Source: a virus. From it: DNA of 30,429 bases. The number at the start of each line of letters is the position of its first letter. Within the stretch, counting starts at the first letter, position 1. Under the pieces are notes generated by a model that did not search any database, was not told the DNA's origin, and was given only the letters and a program-made list of their open reading frames with translations. The stretch lies in IMG/VR virus record IMGVR_UViG_3300045988_119600; one strand, given 5' to 3'. Below are positions 2,885 to 30,429 of the stretch, piece by piece. The position numbers and the translations under genes are program-made.

Positions 2885-3484
2885 ATGTTTATCTTCTTCT
2901 TGAAAACGCTGGTGGGCGGATTTGTTCTACCGACCTTAATTATTTTTCTGATTTTCGCCATTCATTCTGCTTATTGTAGCTATGGCTATTACAGCACTCT
3001 TTCCGATCCTAAGGCCAAGCGCTTCCGCAATTGGTCTCACCGCGACCGCGTTAACATTCCCCGTCAAATTATTCCCGCCTTTTGGATCGGCGTTTGTCTT
3101 TATCTTGCCGTGGGTATGTTTGGTGGAGTTATAATGTCTTCTGTTAATAAGGACTATTCTAAGTATGATTATACGATTGCGGAAGCCCAAGAGCTAACAA
3201 GTATGGATAATGATGGCAATATCTATACTTACCGCGCATTCGAAGGGGAAAGTGTTTATTACACTTATCTTACACTCAGTGCTGATGGCATTACAAGCAC
3301 TGAAAATTATCCCGTGAATAGCACAGTAGTTATTTACTCTAATCAGGTTCCGCACATTGAAAAGCGTCTCCCTCGTTATGGCGATTGGAGAGAGTGGTTC
3401 TTTGTCTGCACTAAATCAACGCGAGCTTATCTTTATATTCCAGAAGGAACAGACGTGGCAAAAGACTATATTGTGGAGAAGTAA
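2885..3484 (+). CDS. Membrane protein (N-terminal TM helix, 199 aa)
   Basis: RBS aaaggag. Hydrophobic N-terminus FVLPTLIIFLIFAI and an internal TM IPAFWIGVCLYLAVGMFGGVIM. Confidence 0.65.
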   Translation: MFIFFLKTLVGGFVLPTLIIFLIFAIHSAYCSYGYYSTLSDPKAKRFRNWSHRDRVNIPRQIIPAFWIGVCLYLAVGMFGGVIMSSVNKDYSKYDYTIAEAQELTSMDNDGNIYTYRAFEGESVYYTYLTLSADGITSTENYPVNSTVVIYSNQVPHIEKRLPRYGDWREWFFVCTKSTRAYLYIPEGTDVAKDYIVEK

Positions 3485-5729: not shown

Positions 5730-5887
5730 TTATTATGCTATTTATTATATTAGTATTTTTCGGCTTTATGTATATGGATTTGCTGGATGATAATACTATG
5801 TCTCTTAATGAGAAGTATTATTACTGCGGTATGGGCATGTTGCTTTGCCTGTTTGCCGGTTTCATTCAGTCAGTCTTTTATGCTTAA
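5726..5887 (+). CDS. Small hydrophobic peptide (53 aa). The ATG overlaps the upstream TGA (ATGA)
   Basis: MIIMLFIILVFFGFMYM… Below the ORF-track length cut-off. Confidence 0.35.
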   Translation: MIIMLFIILVFFGFMYMDLLDDNTMSLNEKYYYCGMGMLLCLFAGFIQSVFYA

Positions 5888-6602: not shown

Positions 6603-7208
6603 ATGATTATTTGTAAACATTGCGGTCAGCCCATTTCTGATAAGTCAAAGATTTGTCCGTTTTGTGGAGGCAATGTAAAGGTTCCTTTCTATGATAAGAC
6701 ATGGTTCCATATTCTCCTTGTGCTTATCATCTTTGCGGGGATTGATTATGTCATTAGGAATCCCGATCCCGAACCTACTGTATATCGCACTCCAATTGTA
6801 GAGAACGCGGAAGCCTCGTCTCAGAGTTCGGATGATCCCATCGAAGAGATCGATGAACAGGAAACCGCGCCTAAGAGTGAAGAAGATAAATATTCTAATG
6901 AAAATATTAGTGATATGATCGCTCTTGTGGATAATTACCCTATGCAAGCAGAAGATTATGAGGGTCAATATATCCGCGTTTCAGGCTATGTGCGGAATGT
7001 GGATAGTGATGGTAAATATTTTACCATTGCCGAAGATGATGATAGTTTTGTTATTACCAATACAATTCAGTAGAAGATGAAGAAAACTTCTGATGTATAT
7101 GAGTTTATTAAAAATACTACTATTGGAACTTATATCACTGTTGAAGGTAAAATTACTGATGTTGGTGAAGTTATGTATTATCTCGGCGAAGCAGATAATG
7201 CGTATTAA
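6603..7208 (+). CDS. Zinc-ribbon + TM + C-terminal beta-rich domain protein. Reads through an in-frame TAG at 7071-7073 and ends at TAA 7206-7208
   Basis: The N-terminus reads CKHCGQ…CPFCGG followed by a TM helix. After the TAG there are 44 further in-frame codons with no stop (KMKKTSDVYEFIKNTTIGTYITVEGKITDVGEVMYYLGEADNAY*). The terminator comes only after 7208. Confidence 0.55.
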
Positions 7209-7581: not shown

Positions 7582-7829
7582 TGACTGTTTATGCTCTTTG
7601 TTATCATTATGATAGTTTTGGCGGTGATGATACCGCGGTGCTTAGCCTTTATTCTACTGAGGAAAAGGCTTTTGAAGCAGGACGAAAGAAAGAAAAGGAA
7701 GCGCAAGAGCGTTGGGAAAAAAATAAATCTATCTCATATTGCAAAAAGCCTTCGTTTGATGGATTTTTCGTTCACGGCTACGGCGACTACTATGTAAAGA
7801 TTATGGAAGTTGATAAGGAGACTATCTAA
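7581..7829 (+). CDS. Hypothetical protein, with TAATG stop/start overlap. The alternative start at 7572 is only 2 nt from its RBS
   Basis: ggaggt lies 11 nt upstream of 7581. Confidence 0.5.
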   Translation: MTVYALCYHYDSFGGDDTAVLSLYSTEEKAFEAGRKKEKEAQERWEKNKSISYCKKPSFDGFFVHGYGDYYVKIMEVDKETI

Positions 7830-8677: not shown

Positions 8678-8929
8678 ATGGAAGTTAAATTTTATCACAT
8701 TCAAACATATACCTGCTATTGTGGCGAAACAATAGATCATTTCTTTAAAGGCACGGAAAAAGAAATGGAACAATATGCGGAATCTTGTGTTGAAGATGAC
8801 GCTATGGAGTGGTGGGATCAGCAAAGCGAAGAAGACTTCTATGATGAGTATGACGCTTATCTTGCCGAATGTGGATACAATGTTTAGGAAGTCTCGGAAG
8901 AAGAATATGAAAAGTATAAGGAGTTTTAA
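8678..8929 (+). CDS. Hypothetical acidic protein that reads through an in-frame TAG at 8885-8887 to TAA at 8927-8929
   Basis: After the TAG, 13 in-frame codons (EVSEEEYEKYKEF*) end 2 nt before the next gene's ATG at 8932. This fits the tight packing seen elsewhere. Confidence 0.5.
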
Positions 8930-12366: not shown

Positions 12367-12527
12367 TGGATAATTTGTTTATGTGTTATGCGAATCACAC
12401 TGAGGAACTTGAAAGAATTATCAAGGAAATTAGTGCTGGTGCAACGACTTTCCAGACTGAGCTCACTCTAACAGACAGCGATATGGAATATATCCGACGA
12501 GAAGTGGAGAGGAGACTAAATGGCTGA
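12366..12527 (+). CDS. Small hypothetical protein (53 aa), with TAATG overlap upstream and overlapping the next start downstream
   Basis: MDNLFMCYANHTEELERIIKEISAGATTFQTELTLTDSDMEYIRREVERRLNG*. Confidence 0.4.
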   Translation: MDNLFMCYANHTEELERIIKEISAGATTFQTELTLTDSDMEYIRREVERRLNG

Positions 12528-13884
12528 ATCTAATGTAATGGGAACTTATAAATTCCCACCTAATGTCTTTGATAAAGTCTTAGATAAATTTAGTCAAGCA
12601 GTTCAAGATGGTAAGTATCATAAGCTTGATTACGTCTTTTGGCGTAAATTAAAGACTACTAAAAATAGTGTTAGGATTGTTGTCAAATCTGACCTTAATG
12701 GTAAAATTTTCTTTGATATTTTTCCTGATACTTATATTATGAATTCTTTCTTTGCTGACGGTATTGATGGTTCTTTTGGTGAATACTTAGTTGATAATGT
12801 TTGTAATATTTTTACAAATGATTATGCGATTGAATGTTCGGAAAAGTTTCTTGAATATAAGATGCGTAGGGCAAAGAAGACTGTTGAAAAGAATAACGAT
12901 ATAAGCAAAACCCGCGATGACCTTGATTATATCAAAGTGTATGACAAGGGAATATGGAGCACAGAATTTTCTTGCGCGAATACTATTTCTGATGAAGAAG
13001 CCCAGAAGATTCTTGGAGAGTTAAATGCCACACCTATTACAGTAGTCTCTGATGATGATTGCATGACTGGAAAGGTTGCTTCAATTGATTCTAACGCAAT
13101 TTTTGCTACTACTCTCGCTTCTGCCCCTGATACAATTACACTCGGTGGTAGTCAAATTGACGCAATTAAAGATAAGTGTGCCATGATTGATAACGATTAT
13201 ATTGATGATCAAATCAATAAAGTTTTGAACGAACAAAATACATTTAACAATAATGTTGATAATAAGAAAGGAAATAAGAAAATGAAGGCGTTTAATTTTG
13301 ATTTTGGCCCCTGCACCACTGATAACATTCGTATGTCTATGTATGGCCTGGCCGTGAAGAACGCGAATGGCACTTGGGTTTCTTACAACCCTGAGAGTAA
13401 GGAGATTATCGACGTCGATATCTTCAACTTTGATGGCGGTAAGTTCCTTTACAAGATGCCGGTTGCCATCAAGGACGTTAAGGTCGGCGACATTGTGATC
13501 CACAACCGCAAGGCGATGTTTGTGACTGAGGTTGCTGAAACGGGTATGACTGCGATTGATCCGCAGGCCGGTGAGGAGAAGAAGATTCTGCTTACCAAGT
13601 CTCCGTTTGGTTTCAACTTCGCAACGAAGGTCGTGTCTCTCTTTAACATGACTTCTGATGCGCCCACTCCGGATGCGCCGTTCGGCAATATGCTTCCCTT
13701 CCTCATGATGAGTGAGAATAGTGGTGAGTTCGACATGAACACCATGCTGATGCTCTCTATGATGGGTGGTCAGAGTGGTATGGATTTCTCTAAGAATCCT
13801 ATGATGATGTATTTCCTTATGAAGGATTCCAAGAACGCGGATGATCTTCTTCCGCTCATGTTCATGGGTAATCTTTGTAAGTAA
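12520..13884 (+). CDS. Large hypothetical protein (454 aa) with a Met-rich C-terminus. Composition is chimeric: the 5' half is AT-rich and the 3' half (about 13290-13884) is GC-rich
   Basis: ORF track. Antisense ORFs were rejected. Confidence 0.75.
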   Translation: MAESNVMGTYKFPPNVFDKVLDKFSQAVQDGKYHKLDYVFWRKLKTTKNSVRIVVKSDLNGKIFFDIFPDTYIMNSFFADGIDGSFGEYLVDNVCNIFTNDYAIECSEKFLEYKMRRAKKTVEKNNDISKTRDDLDYIKVYDKGIWSTEFSCANTISDEEAQKILGELNATPITVVSDDDCMTGKVASIDSNAIFATTLASAPDTITLGGSQIDAIKDKCAMIDNDYIDDQINKVLNEQNTFNNNVDNKKGNKKMKAFNFDFGPCTTDNIRMSMYGLAVKNANGTWVSYNPESKEIIDVDIFNFDGGKFLYKMPVAIKDVKVGDIVIHNRKAMFVTEVAETGMTAIDPQAGEEKKILLTKSPFGFNFATKVVSLFNMTSDAPTPDAPFGNMLPFLMMSENSGEFDMNTMLMLSMMGGQSGMDFSKNPMMMYFLMKDSKNADDLLPLMFMGNLCK

Positions 13885-13905
13885 ATATAATAAAACCCCT
13901 TTCGC

Positions 13906-13948
13906 AAGAAAGCCCTTTGATTGACCGCAAAGGGCTTTCTTTATTTTT
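13906..13948 (+). terminator. Rho-independent terminator
   Basis: aagaaagccctttg-attgaccg-caaagggctttctt followed by tatttttat. Confidence 0.8.
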
Positions 13949-14013
13949 ATAAAAAAATATATTATAATATATATATAAAGTTAAGAAAGATATTAAAAAG
14001 AGGTTGATAAGAT

Positions 14014-15618
14014 ATGGCTAATTTATTTGAGCTCCTTTCCAAAGAAGATTGCGAAAAGATTGAAGAGTATATTCGTAATTTTGCGGGCCTCGGCGGAGAT
14101 AGTTCCGATATGAAGGCATCTCTCGACTACATTCTCCGCTTTTGGGCTTATAATAAGCAGAATCTTTATAAGATGTTGGGAGATAATCTTATCATTTCTC
14201 GTAAGGTAAGTTATTCTCGTTCTTATGAAGAGATGAGTGATGATTATTATGATTATTTCGGTAGAAATGGTGATGGTTTCGAATTCCGAAATACCTTTAA
14301 TAATAAGGTAAGAGATCTTTATCTCAGGACAACCATCTCTAATACTCAGTATCTTAATTTGGCAAGTCTTTTGGATGTTGAACCTTTAATGTCTAACATC
14401 TATGATGGTGAATCTTTTAAATTCACTTATAATAATAAAACTCTTATGATTAATAAGGGCATGAAGCTTAGTAAGATGCTTGGTAAGCTGAGTGATATTT
14501 TGGAGATTGACCGCGATGTTTATGAAAAGTTCCGTATCGCTCATTCTCAGTTCCTCAATCAGAAAAATATTTCTGGTGAACTTTGTCTTTCTGTTCATCC
14601 TCTTGATTATATCACTATGAGTGATAATAATTGCGGTTGGGATTCTTGTATGAGATGGCAGAATGGTGGTGGCGAATATCGTCAGGGAACCGTTGAGATG
14701 ATGAATTCTCCCATTATCCTTGAAGCTTATCTTAAATCTGATAAGGACATGGAAATTTGTTATAAGGTTGGTAAGCCTGTGATGTGGAATAGCAAGCGCT
14801 GGCGTGAACTTTTCATCGTAGATGAAAGTCTTATCCTTGGTATCAAGGGTTATCCTTATTGTAATGATAACCTTGAAAGTATTTGTCTCGCTTGGATCAA
14901 GAAGCTCGCTGAACAGAATCTTGGCTTTGGTCCTTATACCAAGTATTTAAATAAGATTCAGAATTACAGTAATAATATTATTGGTGAGTTTGATAGAAAT
15001 ATTTATTTCAATCTTGATACCAATTTCATGTATAACGATATCTATTCAGAGCATAATGCTTACGTTTCCACTAAGATTCCTACGGACGAAAACATTGATC
15101 TTAACTACTCGGGTGAATCTGAGTGTATGTGTTGTGGAGAGCTTCTTGATGATTCTCTCTTCGATGATAGAGAGAATAACGCGGAAATGACTATCTGTCC
15201 AAGTTGCTCGGGTGCAGTAAAGTGCGATAAGTGTGGCGATATTGTTTATGTCGATGACACTTATAATGTCGATGGAAAAACTTACTGCGCTTATTGTTAT
15301 GATGAAAGCACAGAAGTTTGTCCTTGTTGTGAAGTTCGTAAAGATTATGATGATATGAAGCAAATCCGTCTTCGATTCCAAAAGAAGCCAGTTGGATTCT
15401 ATGCGGATATTTGTTGGGATTGTTGTGGAGATAAAAAAGTAAAAACCTTCTTCACTGGTGAAATTGAAGAAGAAAGAGACGGTTGGCGCTCTAATTATTA
15501 TGTCGATGGAGAAACTCTCACGGAAAAGGGCAGAGACCTCTTTGACATTAATGAAGAGGAATTTATTTCTTGGGTGAATGGCACTAACCCAAATCAAAGA
15601 CCTTCTTTGATTTTTTAA
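14014..15618 (+). CDS. Large protein, paralog A. Unknown N-terminal domain with an LC(L/F)SVHPLD core, plus a C-terminal multi-CxxC zinc-ribbon array
   Basis: Shares ELCLSVHPLDYITMSDNNCGWDSC…GEYRQG…WNSKRWRELF with the 18105 product. C-terminus reads CMCCGELL…CPSCSG…CDKCGD…CAYCYDE…CPCCEV…CWDCCGDKK. Confidence 0.8.
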   Translation: MANLFELLSKEDCEKIEEYIRNFAGLGGDSSDMKASLDYILRFWAYNKQNLYKMLGDNLIISRKVSYSRSYEEMSDDYYDYFGRNGDGFEFRNTFNNKVRDLYLRTTISNTQYLNLASLLDVEPLMSNIYDGESFKFTYNNKTLMINKGMKLSKMLGKLSDILEIDRDVYEKFRIAHSQFLNQKNISGELCLSVHPLDYITMSDNNCGWDSCMRWQNGGGEYRQGTVEMMNSPIILEAYLKSDKDMEICYKVGKPVMWNSKRWRELFIVDESLILGIKGYPYCNDNLESICLAWIKKLAEQNLGFGPYTKYLNKIQNYSNNIIGEFDRNIYFNLDTNFMYNDIYSEHNAYVSTKIPTDENIDLNYSGESECMCCGELLDDSLFDDRENNAEMTICPSCSGAVKCDKCGDIVYVDDTYNVDGKTYCAYCYDESTEVCPCCEVRKDYDDMKQIRLRFQKKPVGFYADICWDCCGDKKVKTFFTGEIEEERDGWRSNYYVDGETLTEKGRDLFDINEEEFISWVNGTNPNQRPSLIF

Positions 15619-15624
15619 AAAAAA

Positions 15625-15708
15625 TAATATATAATATTTATGTAAGGTAAAGGAAGAGATACTTCCTAAAAATAAAATTGTTATTTATGAAAGGTTAAGG
15701 TAAAAATT
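15625..15708 (+). promoter_or_regulatory. Conserved promoter (TTGATT-17-TATAAT) with a longer leader containing the ggaagagatacttcc hairpin
   Basis: Motif copy. Confidence 0.5.
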
Positions 15709-16125
15709 ATGACTAATGAAGTTAAGGTTTCTAAGCGCGATTATCTGACCGCGATTATCGGAGCTATGCACACTGGTGAGATCAAGTATGATCCCAATGA
15801 CGTGATCGCATTTTGCGAGCATGAGATTGAGCTGCTTGATAAGAAGACTGCCAAGGCTAAGGAGCGTGCGGCCGCCAAGCGTGCTGAGGGCGATGAGCTG
15901 ACTGAGCAGATTTATAATGTTCTTTATGACGATGAGTTTATGACCATTCCTGAGATCGTCAAGGCTCTCGGCGATGAGAGTGTCTCCGCACAGAAAGCAA
16001 GCTATCGACTCCGCACTCTTGTGAGCGAGAACCGCGCGGAGAAGACTGAGGTTTCTGTTCCGGGCGCTGATGGCGGTAAGGCTTCCAAGAAAGTGGCTTA
16101 TCGCAAGATTGTCGCTGAGGACTAA
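15709..16125 (+). CDS. GC-rich moron-like gene (138 aa), possibly a small DNA-binding protein
   Basis: About 50% GC in an AT-rich background, with its own promoter upstream and a strong terminator downstream. The MTIPEIVKALGDESVSAQKASYRLRTLV segment looks HTH-like. Confidence 0.7.
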   Translation: MTNEVKVSKRDYLTAIIGAMHTGEIKYDPNDVIAFCEHEIELLDKKTAKAKERAAAKRAEGDELTEQIYNVLYDDEFMTIPEIVKALGDESVSAQKASYRLRTLVSENRAEKTEVSVPGADGGKASKKVAYRKIVAED

Positions 16126-16139
16126 GAATTAAATGATTA

Positions 16140-16171
16140 AATGGACTGAAAATTTTTCAGTCCATTTTTTC
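16140..16171 (+). terminator. Rho-independent terminator
   Basis: atggactgaaa-att-tttcagtccat followed by ttttt. Confidence 0.85.
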
Positions 16172-16243
16172 TTGTTATCTGCTCCGACCGGTGCTGGTCG
16201 CATATACCGAAAGTCCAAAAGTAAAAAGCCGTTTAGAATTTTC

Positions 16244-16272
16244 TTGACAAAATTAGAGTTTTTTGTTATAAT
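16244..16272 (+). promoter_or_regulatory. Near-consensus sigma70 promoter (TTGACA-17-TATAAT)
   Basis: ttgaca-aaattagagttttttgt-tataat, then AAGGAG 9 nt before the TTG at 16297. Confidence 0.6.
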
Positions 16273-16296
16273 TATATTATAAAGGAGTGATATAAT

Positions 16297-17097
16297 TTGA
16301 AATATTGTGTTTCTGTGCGTCAACCTGATGTTGTTCGTGAGAAGGCTGATGAGCTTATGGTTAATTATAATGATATAAACATTATGTATGATATGATTTA
16401 GAAATTTCCTAATAAGCGATATATTATCAGAATCCGCAAAAACGAAGAAGTGAATTGGGAAGAGATTGATTCCTTTAAGGATAAAGTCGATCTTATTGTA
16501 GCATTTGAAGATATGCTTACTCGTAATGGATGTAATATTGATGTAAAGTATTATTTCGCTTATCCCGCTACTACATGGGCAGAAGTCCGCGTTCTCCTTG
16601 ATCTTAAAGTTAGCGAACTTTTCATCGGGGCACCACTTACATTTGATTTGAGACAATTAAATCAGCAAGCAAAAGTCCCAATTCGTATGATTGCGAATAA
16701 ATGCTATGACGATAATCTTCCAAGAGAAAATGGAATATGCGGTTCCTACGTCCGACCGGAAGACGTAGATTATTATGGAACATATGTCTCAACTTTAGAA
16801 TTTGACGAGCCCGCACTCTCCAAAGAAGCTGTGCTTTTGGATATCTATCAAAGTGGTCATTGGCAAGGTAATCTAAATCTTTTATTAACCAATCTAAATT
16901 ATAATGCGGATAATCGTGGAATCCCCGAAGATTTTGGCCCCAACCGCATCAATTGCGGTCAGCGCTGTCAACGACAAGGGACGTGCCATTATTGTGAAAC
17001 CGCATTTATATTCTCTCGTGTTATAGATAAAGCCGTTCAAGCAAGTAAGCAGAATAATCCTATCCCCGAGGCGGAAGAGGACTCAATTGACAAATAA
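16297..17097 (+). CDS. Hypothetical protein. The track shows 16450-17097, but the same frame is open back to TTG 16297 (or ATG 16357) through an in-frame TAG at 16399-16401
   Basis: A strong promoter and RBS sit directly upstream. There is no TAA or TGA between 16297 and 16450 in this frame, and the upstream translation is protein-like. Confidence 0.5.
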
Positions 17098-17148
17098 AAA
17101 AAATAATGTTATAATATAAATATAAGATAAAAGATAGGAGAATAAACT

Positions 17149-18255
17149 GTGAGAGGTTTTAAAACTAATGAACTTTGGTTATTTGAATATCTGGTTCGCT
17201 CGACGCAAGATGAGTTAAGGGAATATGTTGCCGATGTATTGAAATCTAAATATTCTGAAGTAGTTATTACTAAAGAGTATGTTTGTGCGGTTGGCGATAT
17301 TCCGATTGCCTTAGTGGCTCATCTTGATACCGTGTTTGAGAAACCGGTCAAAGATTTATATTATGACACAAGAAAAAATGTGCTTTGGTCACCTGAAGGT
17401 CTTGGTGCAGATGATAGAGCAGGAGTATATGCGATTCTTCATATTTTGAGGAATACATCTTTGCGCCCTTCTATTATTTTTACCACTGATGAAGAAATTG
17501 GTGGATTAGGCGCCGAAGCATTAGTATTACAATATTTTGAGTGTCCATTTCCTGATTTGAAATATATTATTCAGTTGGATAGACAAGGCACAAATGATTG
17601 TGTATTTTACGACCTTTACAATCCTAAATTCATTGATTACATTGAATCTTTTGGATTTGTAGAGGATTTTGGCACGTTTAGTGATATTAGTGTTTTATGT
17701 CCTGAATGGAAAATTTGTGGTGTAAATCTTTCAGTTGGATACAAGAATGAACATAGTCATGTTGAAACATTAAATGCGGGCGCTCTTTTTGATACGATTA
17801 ATAAGGTAATCCGCATGCTCCAAGAGAAAGATATCCCTAATTTTGAGTATTATCGTAATTATCATAATATTTGGTTCGATAATATTTGTAAGAATTTTCC
17901 AACTGATGGCGATGGATTCTACGTTCATTGTAGAGGATGCGGTCAGCTATTTAGTGAGTATGAAACATTTCCAGTAAAGGGATTAGATGGACATACATGT
18001 TTTTATTGTCCTGATTGTATTCCCAGTAATGTTGAATGGTGTGCGGAGTGTGAAGAGGCATTTGAAATTGACCCTGCGAACCCACACAGCGAGTATTGTA
18101 AAGATTGTATTGGAGGATTAGTCAAATGTCATATGACTTCGACATCGAAAGCATTAGAGAACAGTTCAACAAAGTCATCAGTTACTCCCAAGGAATCAGT
18201 AATCCAAAAACAGAAGAACTATTCGAAAGATTCCTCGAAGCCAAAAAAGACTTAA
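17149..18255 (+). CDS. Zinc exopeptidase-like (M42/M20 family) domain fused to C-terminal zinc ribbons. GTG start
   Basis: Motifs AHLDTVFE, GADDRAGV and TTDEEIGGLGA, in the order expected for the M42/M20 zinc-aminopeptidase fold. C-terminus reads CRGCGQ…CFYCPDC…CAECEE…CKDC. RBS aggaga 7 nt before the GTG. Confidence 0.65.
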   Translation: MRGFKTNELWLFEYLVRSTQDELREYVADVLKSKYSEVVITKEYVCAVGDIPIALVAHLDTVFEKPVKDLYYDTRKNVLWSPEGLGADDRAGVYAILHILRNTSLRPSIIFTTDEEIGGLGAEALVLQYFECPFPDLKYIIQLDRQGTNDCVFYDLYNPKFIDYIESFGFVEDFGTFSDISVLCPEWKICGVNLSVGYKNEHSHVETLNAGALFDTINKVIRMLQEKDIPNFEYYRNYHNIWFDNICKNFPTDGDGFYVHCRGCGQLFSEYETFPVKGLDGHTCFYCPDCIPSNVEWCAECEEAFEIDPANPHSEYCKDCIGGLVKCHMTSTSKALENSSTKSSVTPKESVIQKQKNYSKDSSKPKKT

Positions 18256-26351: not shown

Positions 26352-27131
26352 ATGATAGGAATTTATAAAATTACTAATAAAATAAATAATCATTGTTATA
26401 TTGGATAGTCAAGAAATATAGCAGAACGTTGGGAAAATCATATATATAGCTCCCAAGATGAAAAGAGTAAAAGCTATAATTATCCCTTATATCAAAGTTT
26501 CAGAAAATATGGTGTTTCTAATTTTATATTTGAAGTGTTAGAAGAATGTGAAATTGATAATCTAAATAGTAGAGAAACTTATTGGATTGATTATTATAAA
26601 CCAGAGTATAATTAGACAATAGGTGGAGATTATCGCGTAATTTATCAAAAATTAAATTATTAGGAAGTCCAAGATATTCAAAATATTTTAATTAATGATA
26701 AGTTAGGTGTAGTTAATCATTCGGAATTAGCTAAAAAATATAAAGTTAGTAAAGATACTATTAGAGATATAAATGTTGGAAGAACTTGGTTTAATGAAAA
26801 ATTAAATTATCCTTTACATTATTCTCGTTTTGATAAAAATAAACCAGAAGAAGAGAAAAAACTTTTAAAAAAAGTTTGTCCTATATGTGGTGGAGAGTGG
26901 AGCGGAAAAGGTCAAAAATGTTAGAAATGTTCTGCTAAAGAACATCGAAAAATTAAAAGACCTTCTCGTGATAAATTAAAAAAATTGATTCGTAATAAAA
27001 GTTTTACTTCTATCGCGAATATATATCATGTAAGTGATAATTCCATTAGAAAATGGTGTATTTCTTATAATTTACCTAATACAAAAAAAATTATAAATTT
27101 ATACACTGATGATGAATGGAAAAACATATAA
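26352..27131 (+). mobile_element. GIY-YIG homing endonuclease gene (259 codons) with four in-frame TAG codons, inserted in the tRNA cluster
   Basis: MIGIYKITNKINNHCYIG[TAG]SRNIAERWENH matches the GIY-(10)-YIG…R…E signature, with the TAG falling where YIGQS/YIGSS is expected. HTH-like NUMOD segments follow, and a CPICGG…KC[TAG]KC zinc finger has its TAG inside the CxxC. RBS gtaaggaga. Confidence 0.8.
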
Positions 27132-27212
27132 ATATTAGGCGTAATGCCGTAAGCCCTCTTTTAAGAGGTATCACAGTAATAAAGACACACACAGCAATCA
27201 TTTTCTATTGAA

Positions 27213-27284
27213 AGTATTTTAACTCATTGGTAGAGTATTTGTCTGTCAAACAAATTGTAGTTGGTTCAATTCCAACAAATATTT
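27213..27284 (+). tRNA. tRNA-Asp (GUC)
   Basis: Acceptor agtattt/aaatatt, anticodon stem tttgt/acaaa with loop cuGUCaa, T-arm gttgg-ttcaatt-ccaac. Confidence 0.7.
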
Positions 27285-27329
27285 CATTTGTGTCTTGTAA
27301 ATTAAAATAATCCAAAAGGAGATATCTAA

Positions 27330-27533
27330 ATGAAGTTTAAGTTTAAGCCCGGCGACAAGGTTTATTCTAAGAAGTATGGTAAGGGCTTTTGCCATCAGGT
27401 TGATGAACAGGATAAAGATTTTACTTATGATTTCCATTTTAAGGATGGCACAATCATTTGGATGTCCCGATATGATGGTGAGCGTTATGTAAAGTTCCGC
27501 AGACCGAAGAACGCGGAACCCGCAAACGCATAA
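27330..27533 (+). CDS. Small basic hypothetical protein (67 aa)
   Basis: RBS aaaaggagatatctaaATG. Confidence 0.55.
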   Translation: MKFKFKPGDKVYSKKYGKGFCHQVDEQDKDFTYDFHFKDGTIIWMSRYDGERYVKFRRPKNAEPANA

Positions 27534-27747
27534 TTTATCTTTCCTTTCTTTTTGAATAATTAAGGCGCTAACAGCAAACTTTAAAACATCAATGTACAAA
27601 ATACATATGCTTAAGATTGTTTATAGCGTCTTGTTCTATTTATATTGTTGATGTAGTACGATAAATAAAATATCACATTCTTTTAGTCAATTTTAAAGGA
27701 AGAATGACTACGTGGAGAATCGGGAATCGTAGCAATATAAATATTAT

Positions 27748-27823
27748 GGGCGGATAGCTCAGTTGGTAGAGCGTAGGATTGAAGATCCTAGCGTCGGCAG
27801 TTCGATTCTGTCTCCGCCCACCA
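27748..27823 (+). tRNA. tRNA-Phe (GAA), CCA encoded
   Basis: gggcgga…gctc-agttggtag-agc…anticodon stem tagga/tccta with loop uuGAAga…T-loop ttcgatt…tccgccc-a-cca. Confidence 0.85.
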
Positions 27824-28232
27824 AAAGACCAACAAATGAGGAACCTCTTTGCTGCTCGAGGCTGTTGGGATGCCTGTTAGAAAGGCTACTCTTCTATATA
27901 TTTAAATATATAGAAACAAAAGACTATACAATAGAGAGAGTCTTTTACATCTAGTTCATTTTCTTACTTATCTTTCTGTTTGATTTCCCCTTTCGTTTGA
28001 TATATAGATTGTTGTTTTCTCTCACTTCCATAGAAATGAATTGTTTTTCTACTCTCTATTTTGTTTCATAAAAATAAATAAAGAAGGAGGATTGTCTGAT
28101 ATGTTTAAAGATGTTGATGATTTGATCTTTGGCGATGAGCGCGAGTTTTGTCCTAGCGAACGATAAGTGCGGTCGCCTATCTAATGCTACCATAGGCTGG
28201 TTCCAAGTCCAGAAAAGCAGAGGAGGTAGGAT

Positions 28233-28469
28233 ATGAAAAATATTTTAAGCTATAAAAATCCTTGTTTTAGCGGTCAAGAAATTCTTGATTGGGCCAATTA
28301 TCAAGTGAATAATAAAACTTCTCATTATAAGCAAGGACTGAGAGTTTTAAATTTATTTGGTAATATTAAACCTGATAGAAAATATTATATTTTTAGTAAT
28401 TATCGCACTTGGCGTAGTTATTGTGGATATAGTATTAAGCCTAAGCTAATTATATATAGGTGTAAATAA
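28233..28469 (+). CDS. Hypothetical protein (78 aa)
   Basis: RBS agaggaggtaggatATG. Confidence 0.5.
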   Translation: MKNILSYKNPCFSGQEILDWANYQVNNKTSHYKQGLRVLNLFGNIKPDRKYYIFSNYRTWRSYCGYSIKPKLIIYRCK

Positions 28470-28562
28470 ATAGAATAATTGAGGCGTTGGGTGAGGGTGT
28501 GGTATGGTTTAAACGAGGATATCATCTGTTTAAGCAGTAAATTATTCTATTTATATATTATG

Positions 28563-28652
28563 AAGGAGTGGCAGAGCTGGTTGAATGCGGCACCCTGCTA
28601 AGGTGTTGGCCTCATTTGGGGCCCGGAGGTTCGAATCCTCTCTCCTTCGCCA
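28563..28652 (+). tRNA. tRNA-Ser (GCU), long variable arm, CCA encoded
   Basis: Acceptor gaaggag/ctccttc, anticodon stem gcacc/ggtgt with loop cuGCUaa, T-arm ggagg-ttcgaat-cctct. Confidence 0.85.
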
Positions 28653-28679
28653 TTAAATTTTAAATTAAGAGGATTAAGT

Positions 28680-29819
28680 ATGAATATTGTAAACGCTGGT
28701 TCTCGCTATCAGATTTATGGCGAGGACGTTAAGACTTATAAGCGACTTCCGCTTATGTCTTTTGAAGTCTGCTTTAGTAAGATGGCAGGTTTTTATCTTT
28801 CTTCTCGTCCAGATCTTGCGGTCAATGAGGAAAAAATTTATGGTAATCACGAAGTTAAAGTCAATAAGGTGCTTAATTCTTTTAAGTATTCAGACCGTAA
28901 TCTTGGTGTTATTTTAAGTGGTCAGAAGGGTATTGGTAAGTCATTGTTTGCTCGTATTCTTTCTCATCACGCTATTGAAAACGGATATCCTGTCCTTTTG
29001 GCTAATACTTATATGCCTGGTATCGCAGATTTTATTTCCAGTATCGAGCAAGAAGTCGTAATTATTTTTGATGAGTTTGAAAAGAATTTCTCTAATAACT
29101 CTGACGACCATGCGGGCCCCTCTCCGCAGGAAGAAATGCTTTCTCTTTTTGATGGTCTTGATAATGGTAAGAAGCTTTTTGTCATTACTTGTAATGAAGT
29201 TGATCGACTTAGCACTTATCTTTTGAATAGACCTGGTCGTTTCCATTATCATTTTAAGATTACTTTCCCAACTGAGGAAGAGATCGTTGAGTATTTGACT
29301 GATAAGGTTAAGCCTAAATACGCAGATGGTATTAAGGATATTGTGAATTTTTCTCGCACTGTTAATATGACTTATGATTATCTTCGAGCGATTGCTTTTG
29401 AACTTAATCAGGGTTATGGTGTGGCAGAAACTCTTGAAGACCTTAATATCTCTCAGACTTCCAATGTTCGTTTCAATATCACTATTACTACGGTAAATGG
29501 TGATGTATATAATACCTATGGTGCTTCAGTTAATTTGTTTAACAATCCTAATACCAATCATCAAAGATGGTATGATGGTTATGCCTCAGATAGTAAGACT
29601 ATTCGTTATGCCTTGACTCCTGATTCGATTAAGATTGAAAAGGGTATGATTACAGCTGATCCGAAAAAGGTTGAAGTTTACATTGATCCTGATGACTTTT
29701 GGACGATTACTGATGCTGAAAAGCGTAAGGAAGCTATTGAAAAGGCTAAAAATGAGCGCGTAATTAAGTCTGTTGTTTTAACTAAGGTCGCAAACACTAT
29801 TGAACAGTATCTTTATTAA
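28680..29819 (+). CDS. AAA-family ATPase (379 aa)
   Basis: Walker A GQKGIGKS, Walker B VIIFDEFE, then ITCN and LNRPGRFHYHF (the classic AAA second region of homology). RBS aagaggattaagtATG. Confidence 0.85.
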   Translation: MNIVNAGSRYQIYGEDVKTYKRLPLMSFEVCFSKMAGFYLSSRPDLAVNEEKIYGNHEVKVNKVLNSFKYSDRNLGVILSGQKGIGKSLFARILSHHAIENGYPVLLANTYMPGIADFISSIEQEVVIIFDEFEKNFSNNSDDHAGPSPQEEMLSLFDGLDNGKKLFVITCNEVDRLSTYLLNRPGRFHYHFKITFPTEEEIVEYLTDKVKPKYADGIKDIVNFSRTVNMTYDYLRAIAFELNQGYGVAETLEDLNISQTSNVRFNITITTVNGDVYNTYGASVNLFNNPNTNHQRWYDGYASDSKTIRYALTPDSIKIEKGMITADPKKVEVYIDPDDFWTITDAEKRKEAIEKAKNERVIKSVVLTKVANTIEQYLY

Positions 29820-29825
29820 CGCGAC

Positions 29826-29866
29826 GGCCGATGTAAAGTGAATATACTTTACATCGGCCCCTTTTG
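29826..29866 (+). terminator. Rho-independent terminator
   Basis: ggccgatgtaaagt-gaatat-actttacatcggcc followed by ccttttg. Confidence 0.8.
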
Positions 29867-29914
29867 ACTTTATAAAAAAAATATTATATAATAAATATAT
29901 GAAAATAAGAAAAT
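29866..29914 (+). promoter_or_regulatory. Conserved promoter and leader (TTGACT-17-TATAAT-aaatatatgaaaataagaaaatg) driving the tRNA pair
   Basis: Motif copy directly upstream of a tRNA. Confidence 0.55.
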
Positions 29915-30002
29915 GCTTTTGTGATGGAATTGGTATACATGCTAGACTAAGAATCTAGTGGGCGTAAAGTTCATGTGAGTTCGAGTCTCACCAAAAGCAC
30001 CA
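29915..30002 (+). tRNA. Class II (long variable arm) tRNA, Leu-type, anticodon read as AAG. CCA encoded
   Basis: Perfect acceptor gcttttg/caaaagc, anticodon stem ctaga/tctag with loop cuAAGaa, T-arm gtgag-ttcgagt-ctcac. Confidence 0.6.
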
Positions 30003-30003
30003 T

Positions 30004-30079
30004 GTGGCTGTAGCTCAGTTGGTAGAGCGTCTGATTGTGGCTCAGAAGGTCGCGGATTCGAATTCCGCCAGTCACCCCA
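30004..30079 (+). tRNA. tRNA-His (GUG), CCA encoded
   Basis: gctc-agttggtag-agc, anticodon stem tctga/tcaga with loop uuGUGgc, T-arm gcgga-ttcgaat-tccgc. Confidence 0.8.
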
Positions 30080-30098
30080 ATAGTAAGTAGGTGAAATT

Positions 30099-30266
30099 AT
30101 GAATTATACCGTAGATTAGTTAATCGCTGAATGGAAAGATTAGATTGCTTCTATGAAGTATTATAATTATAGTTCAGAGATTATTGATAAAAATGAGTAG
30201 ATTCTTACTTATTTCCAAGAGTTAAAGGAGTATAAAGATGGAAATCGAACGTAAGTTTGATATTAA
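30099..30266 (+). CDS. Possible small protein (55 codons) with three in-frame TAG codons
   Basis: ATG preceded by aggtga. Apart from the TAGs the frame is open, and the translation is protein-like (…LIAEWKD[TAG]IASMKYYNYSSEIIDKNE[TAG]ILTYFQELKEYKDGNRT*). Confidence 0.25.
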
Positions 30267-30429
30267 AAATATCCCTTCTTGGATGAAGGAAAAAAGTGTT
30301 CGTCATAAGAAAATTGAACAAATTTATCTTATGATTGATTTTGATAATGATGGTAAAGTGCTTGAAGAAATTCGAGTGCGGAAGGCTATTAACCTTAAAA
30401 CCAATCAAGTTGATTATAAGATGACTTAT
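30238..30429 (+). CDS. Partial CDS (runs off the window) with a CYTH/triphosphate-tunnel-like N-terminus
   Basis: RBS aaaggagtataaagATG. MEIERKFDIKN… matches the N-terminal ExExK motif of CYTH domains. The minus-strand track ORF 30205-30408 was rejected. Confidence 0.45.
   Translation, partial: MEIERKFDIKNIPSWMKEKSVRHKKIEQIYLMIDFDNDGKVLEEIRVRKAINLKTNQVDYKMTY

Follow-up and report, generated by a model that had tools for sequence, protein, structure and literature searches.

A predicted GIY-YIG homing endonuclease cassette with reassigned TAG codons in the tRNA gene array of an uncultured gut phage

Can a gene that is crossed by four amber codons, and that sits in the middle of a phage tRNA gene array, encode a working homing endonuclease? 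The question is raised by positions 26352-27131 of IMG/VR virus record IMGVR_UViG_3300045988_119600, whose 30,429 nucleotides (nt) are referred to here as the window. An earlier note, made from the DNA alone, had placed a GIY-YIG endonuclease in this stretch. Our analysis supports, with good confidence, a functional or very recently functional GIY-YIG homing endonuclease carried on a mobile cassette by an uncultured gut phage of ~160-195 kb that reads TAG as glutamine. The cassette is well supported as encoding a homing endonuclease, which is probably active; from sequence comparison we infer its nuclease activity, its target site, homing with co-conversion, and regulatory roles for a leader hairpin and for the TAG codons.

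Reading frame and protein domains

The plus strand of 26352-27131 holds one frame of 259 codons without frameshifts, opening with ATG at 26352 and closing with TAA at 27129-27131, and its only internal stops are four TAG codons (26406-08, 26613-15, 26661-63 and 26922-24; codons 19, 88, 104 and 191). The remaining five frames across the same stretch contain 14-46 stops apiece. At the G+C content of this stretch (24%) about 21 TAA and TGA codons would be expected in 259 codons, none is observed, and none of 20,000 shuffles yields such a frame (probability ~2e-10), which therefore lies far beyond chance. Read with the standard code the frame is split into pieces of at most 86 codons, and a standard scan for open reading frames (ORFs) returned only fragments of 30-48 amino acids (aa). 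Two claims of the earlier note, that the gene is invisible to such a scan and that it requires amber decoding, are thus borne out.

All protein searches used the translation with TAG read as Gln, which contains the peptides INNHCYIGQSR and YKPEYNQTIGGDYR. The Pfam search that the earlier note had proposed for this translation found GIY-YIG (PF01541) rather than drawing a blank, matching aa 2-87 over profile positions 2-78 of 78 (E 3.7e-10, 40.4 bits, cutoff 22.6), and phrog_7168, 'homing endonuclease', matched aa 1-234 across all four TAGs (E 3.3e-34). The best solved-structure match by sequence is the I-TevI catalytic domain (1MK0/1LN0; phmmer, E 3e-7). An AlphaFold2 (AF2) model had a mean predicted local distance difference test (pLDDT) score of 87.9, rising to 90-96 over aa 1-80, and its top Foldseek matches were again I-TevI 1LN0/1MK0 (template modelling score, TM, 0.72-0.77; 1LN0: TM 0.77, E 5e-5), followed by the UvrC N-terminal domain. 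Together the Pfam, phrog_7168 and I-TevI matches uphold the identification as a GIY-YIG homing endonuclease.

The catalytic GIY-YIG domain (aa 1-88; 26352-26615, plus strand) holds TAG codons 19 and 88. Motifs G3-I4-Y5 and Y16-I17-G18 are present, as are R26, H30, E75 and N87, and Y5, Y16, R26, H30 and E75 line up with I-TevI Y6, Y17, R27, H31 and E75. Within a 57-sequence alignment Y5, Y16, Q19, R26 and N87 are invariant, and conservation of H30, E75 and Q88 reaches at least 90%. A linker predicted to be disordered (aa 89-99, pLDDT 37) leads into a first helical, helix-turn-helix (HTH)-like module (aa 103-142; 26658-26777, plus strand; pLDDT ~90), which has sub-threshold Pfam HTH matches only. 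It is followed by a predicted CxxC...CxxC zinc ribbon (C176, C179, C190 and C193; 26877-26930, plus strand) that includes TAG codon 191, appears as two short strands in the AF2 model and has weak Pfam zinc-ribbon matches; C176 is invariant among homologues, and each of the remaining cysteines is conserved in 90% or more of them. The presumed DNA-recognition module is a predicted C-terminal HTH (aa 206-238; 26967-27065, plus strand; pLDDT >90) that matches phrog_15471 and, at 22.3 bits under a cutoff of 27.4, Pfam HTH_Tnp_ISL3. Every Pfam HTH and zinc-ribbon match falls below threshold, Foldseek of the AF2 model found no structural match to the I-TevI DNA-binding domain, and the NUMOD domain suggested in the earlier note was not recovered, with none of NUMOD1, NUMOD3 or NUMOD4 among Pfam matches at E <= 1. 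In a related contig (L018, 76-882, plus strand), an HNH endonuclease just upstream of tRNA-Val shares the C-terminal zinc-ribbon and HTH module with the window protein, which indicates that nuclease domains have been swapped on a common DNA-binding module.

A group I intron context was rejected, as Rfam gave no group I intron match at E <= 1 in 22800-30429 and the ORF lies between intact tRNA genes; the gene is therefore free-standing.

Insertion site, alleles and family context

The gene lies in an array of 16 tRNAs whose flanking members share its strand, in agreement with the location in a tRNA gene cluster given by the earlier note. On its left is a pair of tRNA(CAT) genes (no. 1, 26118-26193; no. 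2, 26195-26268; both on the plus strand and called by ARAGORN, the second also by Rfam at 57.4 bits), and on its right a tRNA with anticodon GTC (27213-27285, plus strand, ARAGORN). The naming of this right neighbour as tRNA-Asp holds for the anticodon and fails for the gene body, which is of Asn type: in 7/7 relatives the gene is otherwise identical and carries GTT (Asn), the anticodon base concerned being 27248, and GTT is found even in L014, which has the same endonuclease as the window. The GTC is a single-base anticodon switch or sequence variant. The second tRNA(CAT) exists in two forms, an 'A-type' allele shared by the window with L002, L014/L015 and L021-L037, and a divergent 'B-type' sequence that takes its place in L001, L005, L007 and L008. 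The B-type sequence (L001 9401-9485 and its counterparts) is longer and keeps the acceptor ends and the CAT loop; ARAGORN does not call the B-type, and Rfam calls no tRNA in that of L001, the only B-type locus scanned.

Comparison with related phages, which the earlier note had recommended for defining the insertion, resolved the site at nucleotide level with empty, occupied and alternatively occupied alleles. The close relatives are IMG/VR contigs of 160-196 kb from metagenome 3300045988, whose tRNA array is 92-98% identical in nucleotide sequence. Three of these (L001, L005 and L007) are without window positions 26201-27181, their tRNA(CAT) running straight into ...CCATAAG(G/A)CACACACAGC; in the L001-type allele the B-type tRNA is followed by CCATAAGGCACACAC. 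Scanning metagenomes for the 3' end of the window tRNA(CAT) allele recovered 17 human-gut loci, 12 of which come from more distant gut phages (longer source contigs of about 140-147 kb) and are empty, reading ...CCGCAACCATA and then GGC(G/A)TAATGCC...; in the L022-type allele the A-type tRNA is followed by CCATA and then GGCATAATGCC. Set against the window layout, in which ...CCATA is followed by 26271-27137 and then GGCGTAATGCC, these distant empty alleles define a cassette of 867 bp (26271-27137, plus strand; an 81-nt leader, the 780-nt ORF and 6 nt) that starts 2 nt past the encoded CCA of tRNA(CAT) no. 2, with a junction that is ambiguous by 2 nt (TA on either side).

The same cassette occupies the same site in L014/L015, which stem from two unrelated sequencing runs (other SRA samples). 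There the orthologous protein is 95% identical, all four TAGs are kept, and 30 codons differ from the window (17 synonymous and 13 non-synonymous), giving a ratio of non-synonymous to synonymous substitution rates (dN/dS) of ~0.14; the endonuclease gene is under purifying selection. In L008, L026 and L034 the site holds a different GIY-YIG gene, likewise with four TAGs, and L002 probably holds that gene too, judging from its truncated contig end. L025, L028 and L031, with flanks 94-97% identical, have a 72-nt filler at the site and no endonuclease gene. Outside the cassette, 27138-27181 (plus strand) is an older spacer with two small hairpins (GGCGTAATGCC; CCTCTTTTAAGAGG) that is common to L008, L026, L034, L025, L028 and L031 and deleted in L001/L005/L007; folds of the 3' flank 27132-27212, and of the spacer between tRNA-Trp and tRNA-Asn at 23523-23600, were no better than shuffles. 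L002 (IMGVR_UViG_3300045988_152116) ends 47 nt into the cassette site (L002 9473-9520), and presence/absence polymorphism of the endonuclease probably breaks assemblies of these phages.

A second site follows the same pattern. A paralogue, 43% identical, lies between tRNA-Trp and tRNA-Asn in L001 and L002, where the window has a short spacer only, and in the L001 copy TAG again occupies the two invariant Gln codons. At either site, genomes that carry the paralogue have a different allele of the upstream tRNA from the genomes without it that were compared, while sequence further out is near-identical, a pattern to be expected from co-conversion during homing; recombinant combinations are also seen (L002, L008 and L025/L028/L031). 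The cassette has a G+C content of 24%, against 26-50% (mostly 33-45%) in other window genes, a composition that marks it as foreign. A transposon was rejected, as the cassette has no terminal inverted or direct repeats and no target-site duplication, only short AT-rich chance repeats. An element (CACCTTCACG...) considered to be shared between the Trp-Asn spacer of the window and the L025/L008 filler is unsupported, with no window match within 2 mismatches.

The wider family numbers 2,501 database proteins at E <= 1e-5. In 15/15 homologous loci scanned for tRNAs the gene lies inside a tRNA array on the tRNA strand; members are often 2-25 nt from a tRNA gene and stand beside many different isoacceptors. 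A target based on some feature that tRNA genes share is therefore favoured. The family occurs under three codes: without recoding (L010, L038), with TAG (the window, L001, L009, L040, L042, L044-L047 and L049), and with TGA for all four Trp codons in L039, where an opal-suppressor tRNA(UCA) lies 2 kb downstream. In L045 and contig 131075 the endonuclease gene ends 4-10 nt before an amber-suppressor tRNA, and in L049 it begins ~110 nt past one. Many of the L042-L121 hits are 130-200-kb contigs in metagenome-assembled genomes (MAGs) of unrelated taxa (Methanobrevibacter, Mollicutes, Fibrobacter, Erysipelotrichaceae and others), with the family inside tRNA arrays and sometimes in several copies per contig. 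These contigs are most likely mis-binned phage genomes, and no host is therefore assigned from the MAG taxa. Megablast of window positions 12500-19600 against the GenBank phage collection gave no match, so there is no close cultured or deposited relative in that collection. The best protein matches of the neighbouring ATPase are to Herelleviridae (~42%); a Zeta crAss-like identity, considered for the tRNA block and dual suppressors (PMC12386605), is unsupported by the ATPase matches.

These data bear on whether the nuclease has been domesticated, that is, kept for a benefit to the phage such as excluding competing relatives, or amplifying or exchanging tRNA genes against tRNA-targeting host defences. 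The strong purifying selection, the restriction of the family to tRNA arrays and the paralogues adjoining a suppressor tRNA in L045, L049 and contig 131075 are all in keeping with such a role, as is the amplification of tRNA loci by T6 SegB to escape Septu (PMC13096335). Presence/absence and allele replacement among genomes that are 92-98% identical are, however, the classical signature of a mobile endonuclease, and the low G+C content points to a foreign cassette. We consider domestication unlikely as the explanation of this locus; it is also compatible with homing, as SegB does both.

Reading of TAG and control of expression

TAG codons 19 and 88 fall on positions that are Gln in 119/120 and 118/120 database homologues. 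Because some database translations may themselves derive from TAG, the homologues' DNA was checked: both codons are CAA/CAG in L009, L010, L038, L039 and L040, of which L010 and L038 have no in-frame stop, L009 and L040 have one TAG each, elsewhere, and L039 has four TGA. L039 has Gln in alignment column 108, the column of TAG 104, and the one TAG of L040 aligns with a canonical Gln of the window in a column that is Gln in four genes. The reading of TAG as Gln is therefore well supported by the homologues.

The recoding extends beyond the endonuclease gene. Three consecutive glycine-rich, tail-fibre-like genes (19997-23278, plus strand; 184, 470 and 438 codons) carry 4, 5 and 4 in-frame TAGs, and these 13 account for over half of the Gln codons in the three genes. 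In-frame TAG is absent from the other 32 genes of the window, which have 121 CAA/CAG among 5,562 codons (Fisher p 1.8e-5 for the comparison with the endonuclease gene), and 35 of the 36 window genes end in TAA or TGA, the sole exception being 6603-7073. The reassignment of TAG to Gln is thus made at the level of the genome, and 'read-through', as the earlier note described it, applies in the sense that amber decoding is needed and not in the sense of a gene-specific event. Gene 6603-7073, the one plausible gene of the window to end in TAG, would with TAG as Gln become 45 codons longer, to a TAA at 7208; the second and third tail-fibre-like genes have long similar Gly-rich repeats and C-terminal regions in common. 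The window genes gave no indication that TGA or TAA is recoded.

A tRNA(CUA) is present in five related contigs (L007 at 2988-3077 on the minus strand, and L016-L019), where it lies beyond the homologous tRNA-His of the same array and follows the His, Arg, Ile, Pro and Val genes. This position is ~3.5 kb further along the array, and the window ends before that point. An amber-suppressor tRNA(CUA) of the same 90-nt type also occurs in L045 and L049, and L016 carries an additional tRNA(UCA).

Decoding of TAG as Ser, Leu or Tyr rather than Gln is suggested by the form of the relatives' tRNA(CUA), which is 90 nt long, has a class-II-like variable arm of 21 nt and a G73, is atypical of tRNA-Gln and is labelled Pyl by ARAGORN. 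Seryl-tRNA synthetase recognises long variable arms irrespective of the anticodon. Against this, the same tRNA has a U1-U72 mismatch, G73, G10 and U35, which we take to fit the glutamine identity rules. The coding evidence points the same way, with TAG on invariant Gln19 and near-invariant Gln88, CAA/CAG at these codons in the DNA-checked genes (two without any in-frame stop), Gln at the third TAG column in L039 and the L040 TAG aligning with Gln in four genes. A decoding other than Gln is accordingly very unlikely. That the gene is a decaying pseudogene, inactivated by four nonsense mutations, is scarcely credible: homing endonuclease genes often degenerate after fixation and the standard code leaves pieces of no more than 86 codons, whereas all four stops are TAG (p ~0.002 for random nonsense mutations) with no TAA, TGA or frameshift, the TAGs are kept in the orthologue while synonymous changes accumulate, two of them fall on invariant or near-invariant Gln positions, and other window genes also need TAG as a sense codon.

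The array contains further unusual tRNA-like sequences. Directly before tRNA-Trp, 23358-23428 (plus strand) has a 6-nt anticodon loop, CUUCAA, in which the Rfam tRNA model (44 bits) sets the anticodon as opal-reading UCA; the L001 copy (5742-5812) has, by eye, a loop AUUUAA, which would give an ochre-reading UUA. Right after tRNA-Glu(TTC), 25882-25958 (plus strand) is a GC-rich tRNA-like sequence with the loop CTGTCAC (GTC) that neither ARAGORN nor Rfam calls. At the corresponding position L008 has a canonical tRNA-Asp (8775-8852), so that what the window and L001 carry is a degenerate or non-canonical version of it. Also within the array, 28178-28228 (plus strand) gives a sub-threshold match to a type-P1 twister ribozyme (39 bits against a gathering cutoff of 67.2, E 6.6e-6). 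In L001 a 62-nt insert at 7733-7791, between tRNA-Ala and tRNA-Thr, matches HDV-F-prausnitzii weakly (28.5 bits, E 0.018), while in the window these two tRNAs are just 5 nt apart (24573/24579). Ribozymes beside tRNAs have been reported in recoded gut phages, and the HDV-like insert of L001 is reminiscent of these.

The 83-nt 5' leader (26269-26351, plus strand) can fold so that 26269-26279 pairs with 26339-26349, a stem that covers the ribosome-binding site (RBS) AAGGAG (26338-26343), 8 nt ahead of the ATG. The fold has a minimum free energy of -16.3 kcal/mol (z = -3.17), and 0/200 shuffles were as good. Equivalent outer stems over the RBS or AUG are formed from unrelated sequence in the leaders of the L001 (z -3.75) and L009 (z -3.44) paralogues, and in the different endonuclease of L008 the GGAGG is hidden in a local hairpin. 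Hairpins that sequester the RBS, and around which an internal late promoter provides a bypass, are known from I-TevI, I-TevII, I-TevIII, segB and mobE (PMC2988022), and AT-rich -10-like boxes lie within the window leader hairpin. The leader also contains a near-palindrome, TTTCGA-GG-TCGAAA (TTTCGAGGTCGAAA; 26286-26299, plus strand), which is retained upstream of paralogues, at other sites as well as in other phages. The window has no further match to it at fewer than 2 mismatches, and it is similar to the tRNA T-loop motif GGTTCGAA. As a lead only, it is possibly an operator, in the manner of I-TevI autorepression, or a promoter element.

Mechanism, significance and known systems

We posit that, on co-infection with a relative lacking the cassette, the enzyme would cut near the spacer between tRNA(CAT) and the next tRNA, and that repair from the cassette-bearing genome would copy the cassette together with neighbouring markers, the adjacent tRNA allele included. 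Expression may be braked twice, firstly by the leader hairpin, which would hide the RBS on read-through transcripts of the tRNA array, and secondly by the four UAG codons, which would need the phage amber-suppressor tRNA(CUA).

A number of observations, along with the atypical form of the relatives' tRNA(CUA), weigh against this account. The A-type tRNA(CAT) occurs without an endonuclease gene in L025/L028/L031, and the link between allele and endonuclease is therefore not strict. In principle an 'empty' allele might have arisen by deletion instead of being a site that was never invaded; the L001-type genomes have lost an extra 45 nt at the cassette site, and a remnant of an ORF 3' end may persist in the L025-type genomes. 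No tRNA(CUA) was found in the 30-kb window by ARAGORN or Rfam, and its presence in this genome is therefore extrapolated from the relatives. As to the leader, the comparison comprises three separately folded hairpins, and for the paralogues in L008 (Val-Sup site), L010, L038, L039 and L040 the leader fold is not significantly better than that of shuffles, so that the RBS-occlusion device is not universal in the family. Across 25900-27400 a sigma-70 promoter scan gave 12 sites where 8.6 +/- 2.8 were expected, no improvement on shuffled sequence, and terminator-like sites were absent from the scan result.

The occurrence of a paralogue 4-110 nt from the tRNA(CUA) gene in at least three genomes raises the idea of a selfish unit in which the endonuclease family is linked to the suppressor tRNA: the nuclease could be made only where that tRNA is expressed, and homing with co-conversion would spread tRNA alleles, the suppressor included, between co-infecting phages. 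We regard this as rather unlikely. Were it true, tRNA-array homing endonucleases would be a vehicle for spreading a change of genetic code, and the reassigned codons would serve as a safeguard, the nuclease staying silent in a genome or cell without the suppressor.

GIY-YIG endonucleases in tRNA clusters, and reassigned stops concentrated in late and endonuclease genes, are both already in the literature, and the novelty is therefore modest. Going beyond that literature are an insertion site mapped to the nucleotide together with its alleles, a single tRNA-array family spread over three codes, and the repeated adjacency to suppressor tRNAs. The locus offers a clean, nucleotide-resolved example of a putative mobile endonuclease cassette in an alternative-code phage, whose natural alleles could serve as cleavage substrates. 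Its family lives almost only in the tRNA arrays of large gut phages and has reassigned stops even on invariant residues adjacent to the active site, which is relevant to the passage of mobile elements across genetic-code boundaries and to their confinement by them. Recoded endonuclease genes of this kind are missed or fragmented by standard annotation.

The closest functional parallel is T4 SegB, a free-standing GIY-YIG homing endonuclease in the T4 tRNA gene cluster that was shown experimentally to recognise a T-psi-C-derived tRNA motif (PMC2330249); SegB-like genes are generally associated with tRNAs (PMC13096335). Like the T4 gene, the window gene is free-standing, of GIY-YIG type, and placed between tRNA genes on their strand. 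Close relatives with the same flanking tRNAs lack it, and its carriers have other alleles of the neighbouring tRNAs than the non-carriers with which they were compared. The link of the family to tRNA arrays fits the recognition of a T-psi-C-derived motif by SegB, and segB too has a leader hairpin that hides its RBS (PMC2988022). In contrast to these likenesses, BLASTP against SegB aligned only residues 5-64 (38% identity, pairwise E 2e-6), and the C-terminal DNA-binding region of the window protein is unrelated. Orthology was rejected, there being no similarity to SegB beyond those residues, and the segB parallel drawn in the earlier note holds for an analogue in a tRNA cluster and not for an orthologue, given that only ~60 N-terminal residues align. 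The setting differs as well, in that the host genome is a gut phage with an ATPase closest to Herelleviridae and not a T-even phage, and the gene has four reassigned stops.

In its protein the window gene is nearer to I-TevI, which is the best solved-structure match, has the same catalytic residues, and shows the same modular order of catalytic domain, flexible linker, zinc finger and HTH (the DNA-binding parts of the window protein being predicted), together with an RBS-sequestering hairpin that in I-TevI holds back translation (PMC2988022). It differs from I-TevI in being free-standing, in having an extra HTH-like module ahead of the zinc ribbon, and in that phmmer and Foldseek detected no sequence similarity past the catalytic domain.

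Stop-codon-recoded phage genes, including those of code 15 with TAG to Gln, are known (PMC9523058; PMC10607447), and in the Agate phages a group I intron endonuclease is recoded at TGA, with the stops proposed to delay endonuclease production (bioRxiv 10.1101/2021.08.26.457843). Unlike that case, which concerns TGA to Trp in an intron ORF, the window has TAG to Gln in a free-standing tRNA-array endonuclease. As in other recoded phages, its reassigned stops are concentrated in structural genes and the homing endonuclease and avoided by most other genes, and the suppressor tRNA, as seen in its relatives, is phage-encoded.

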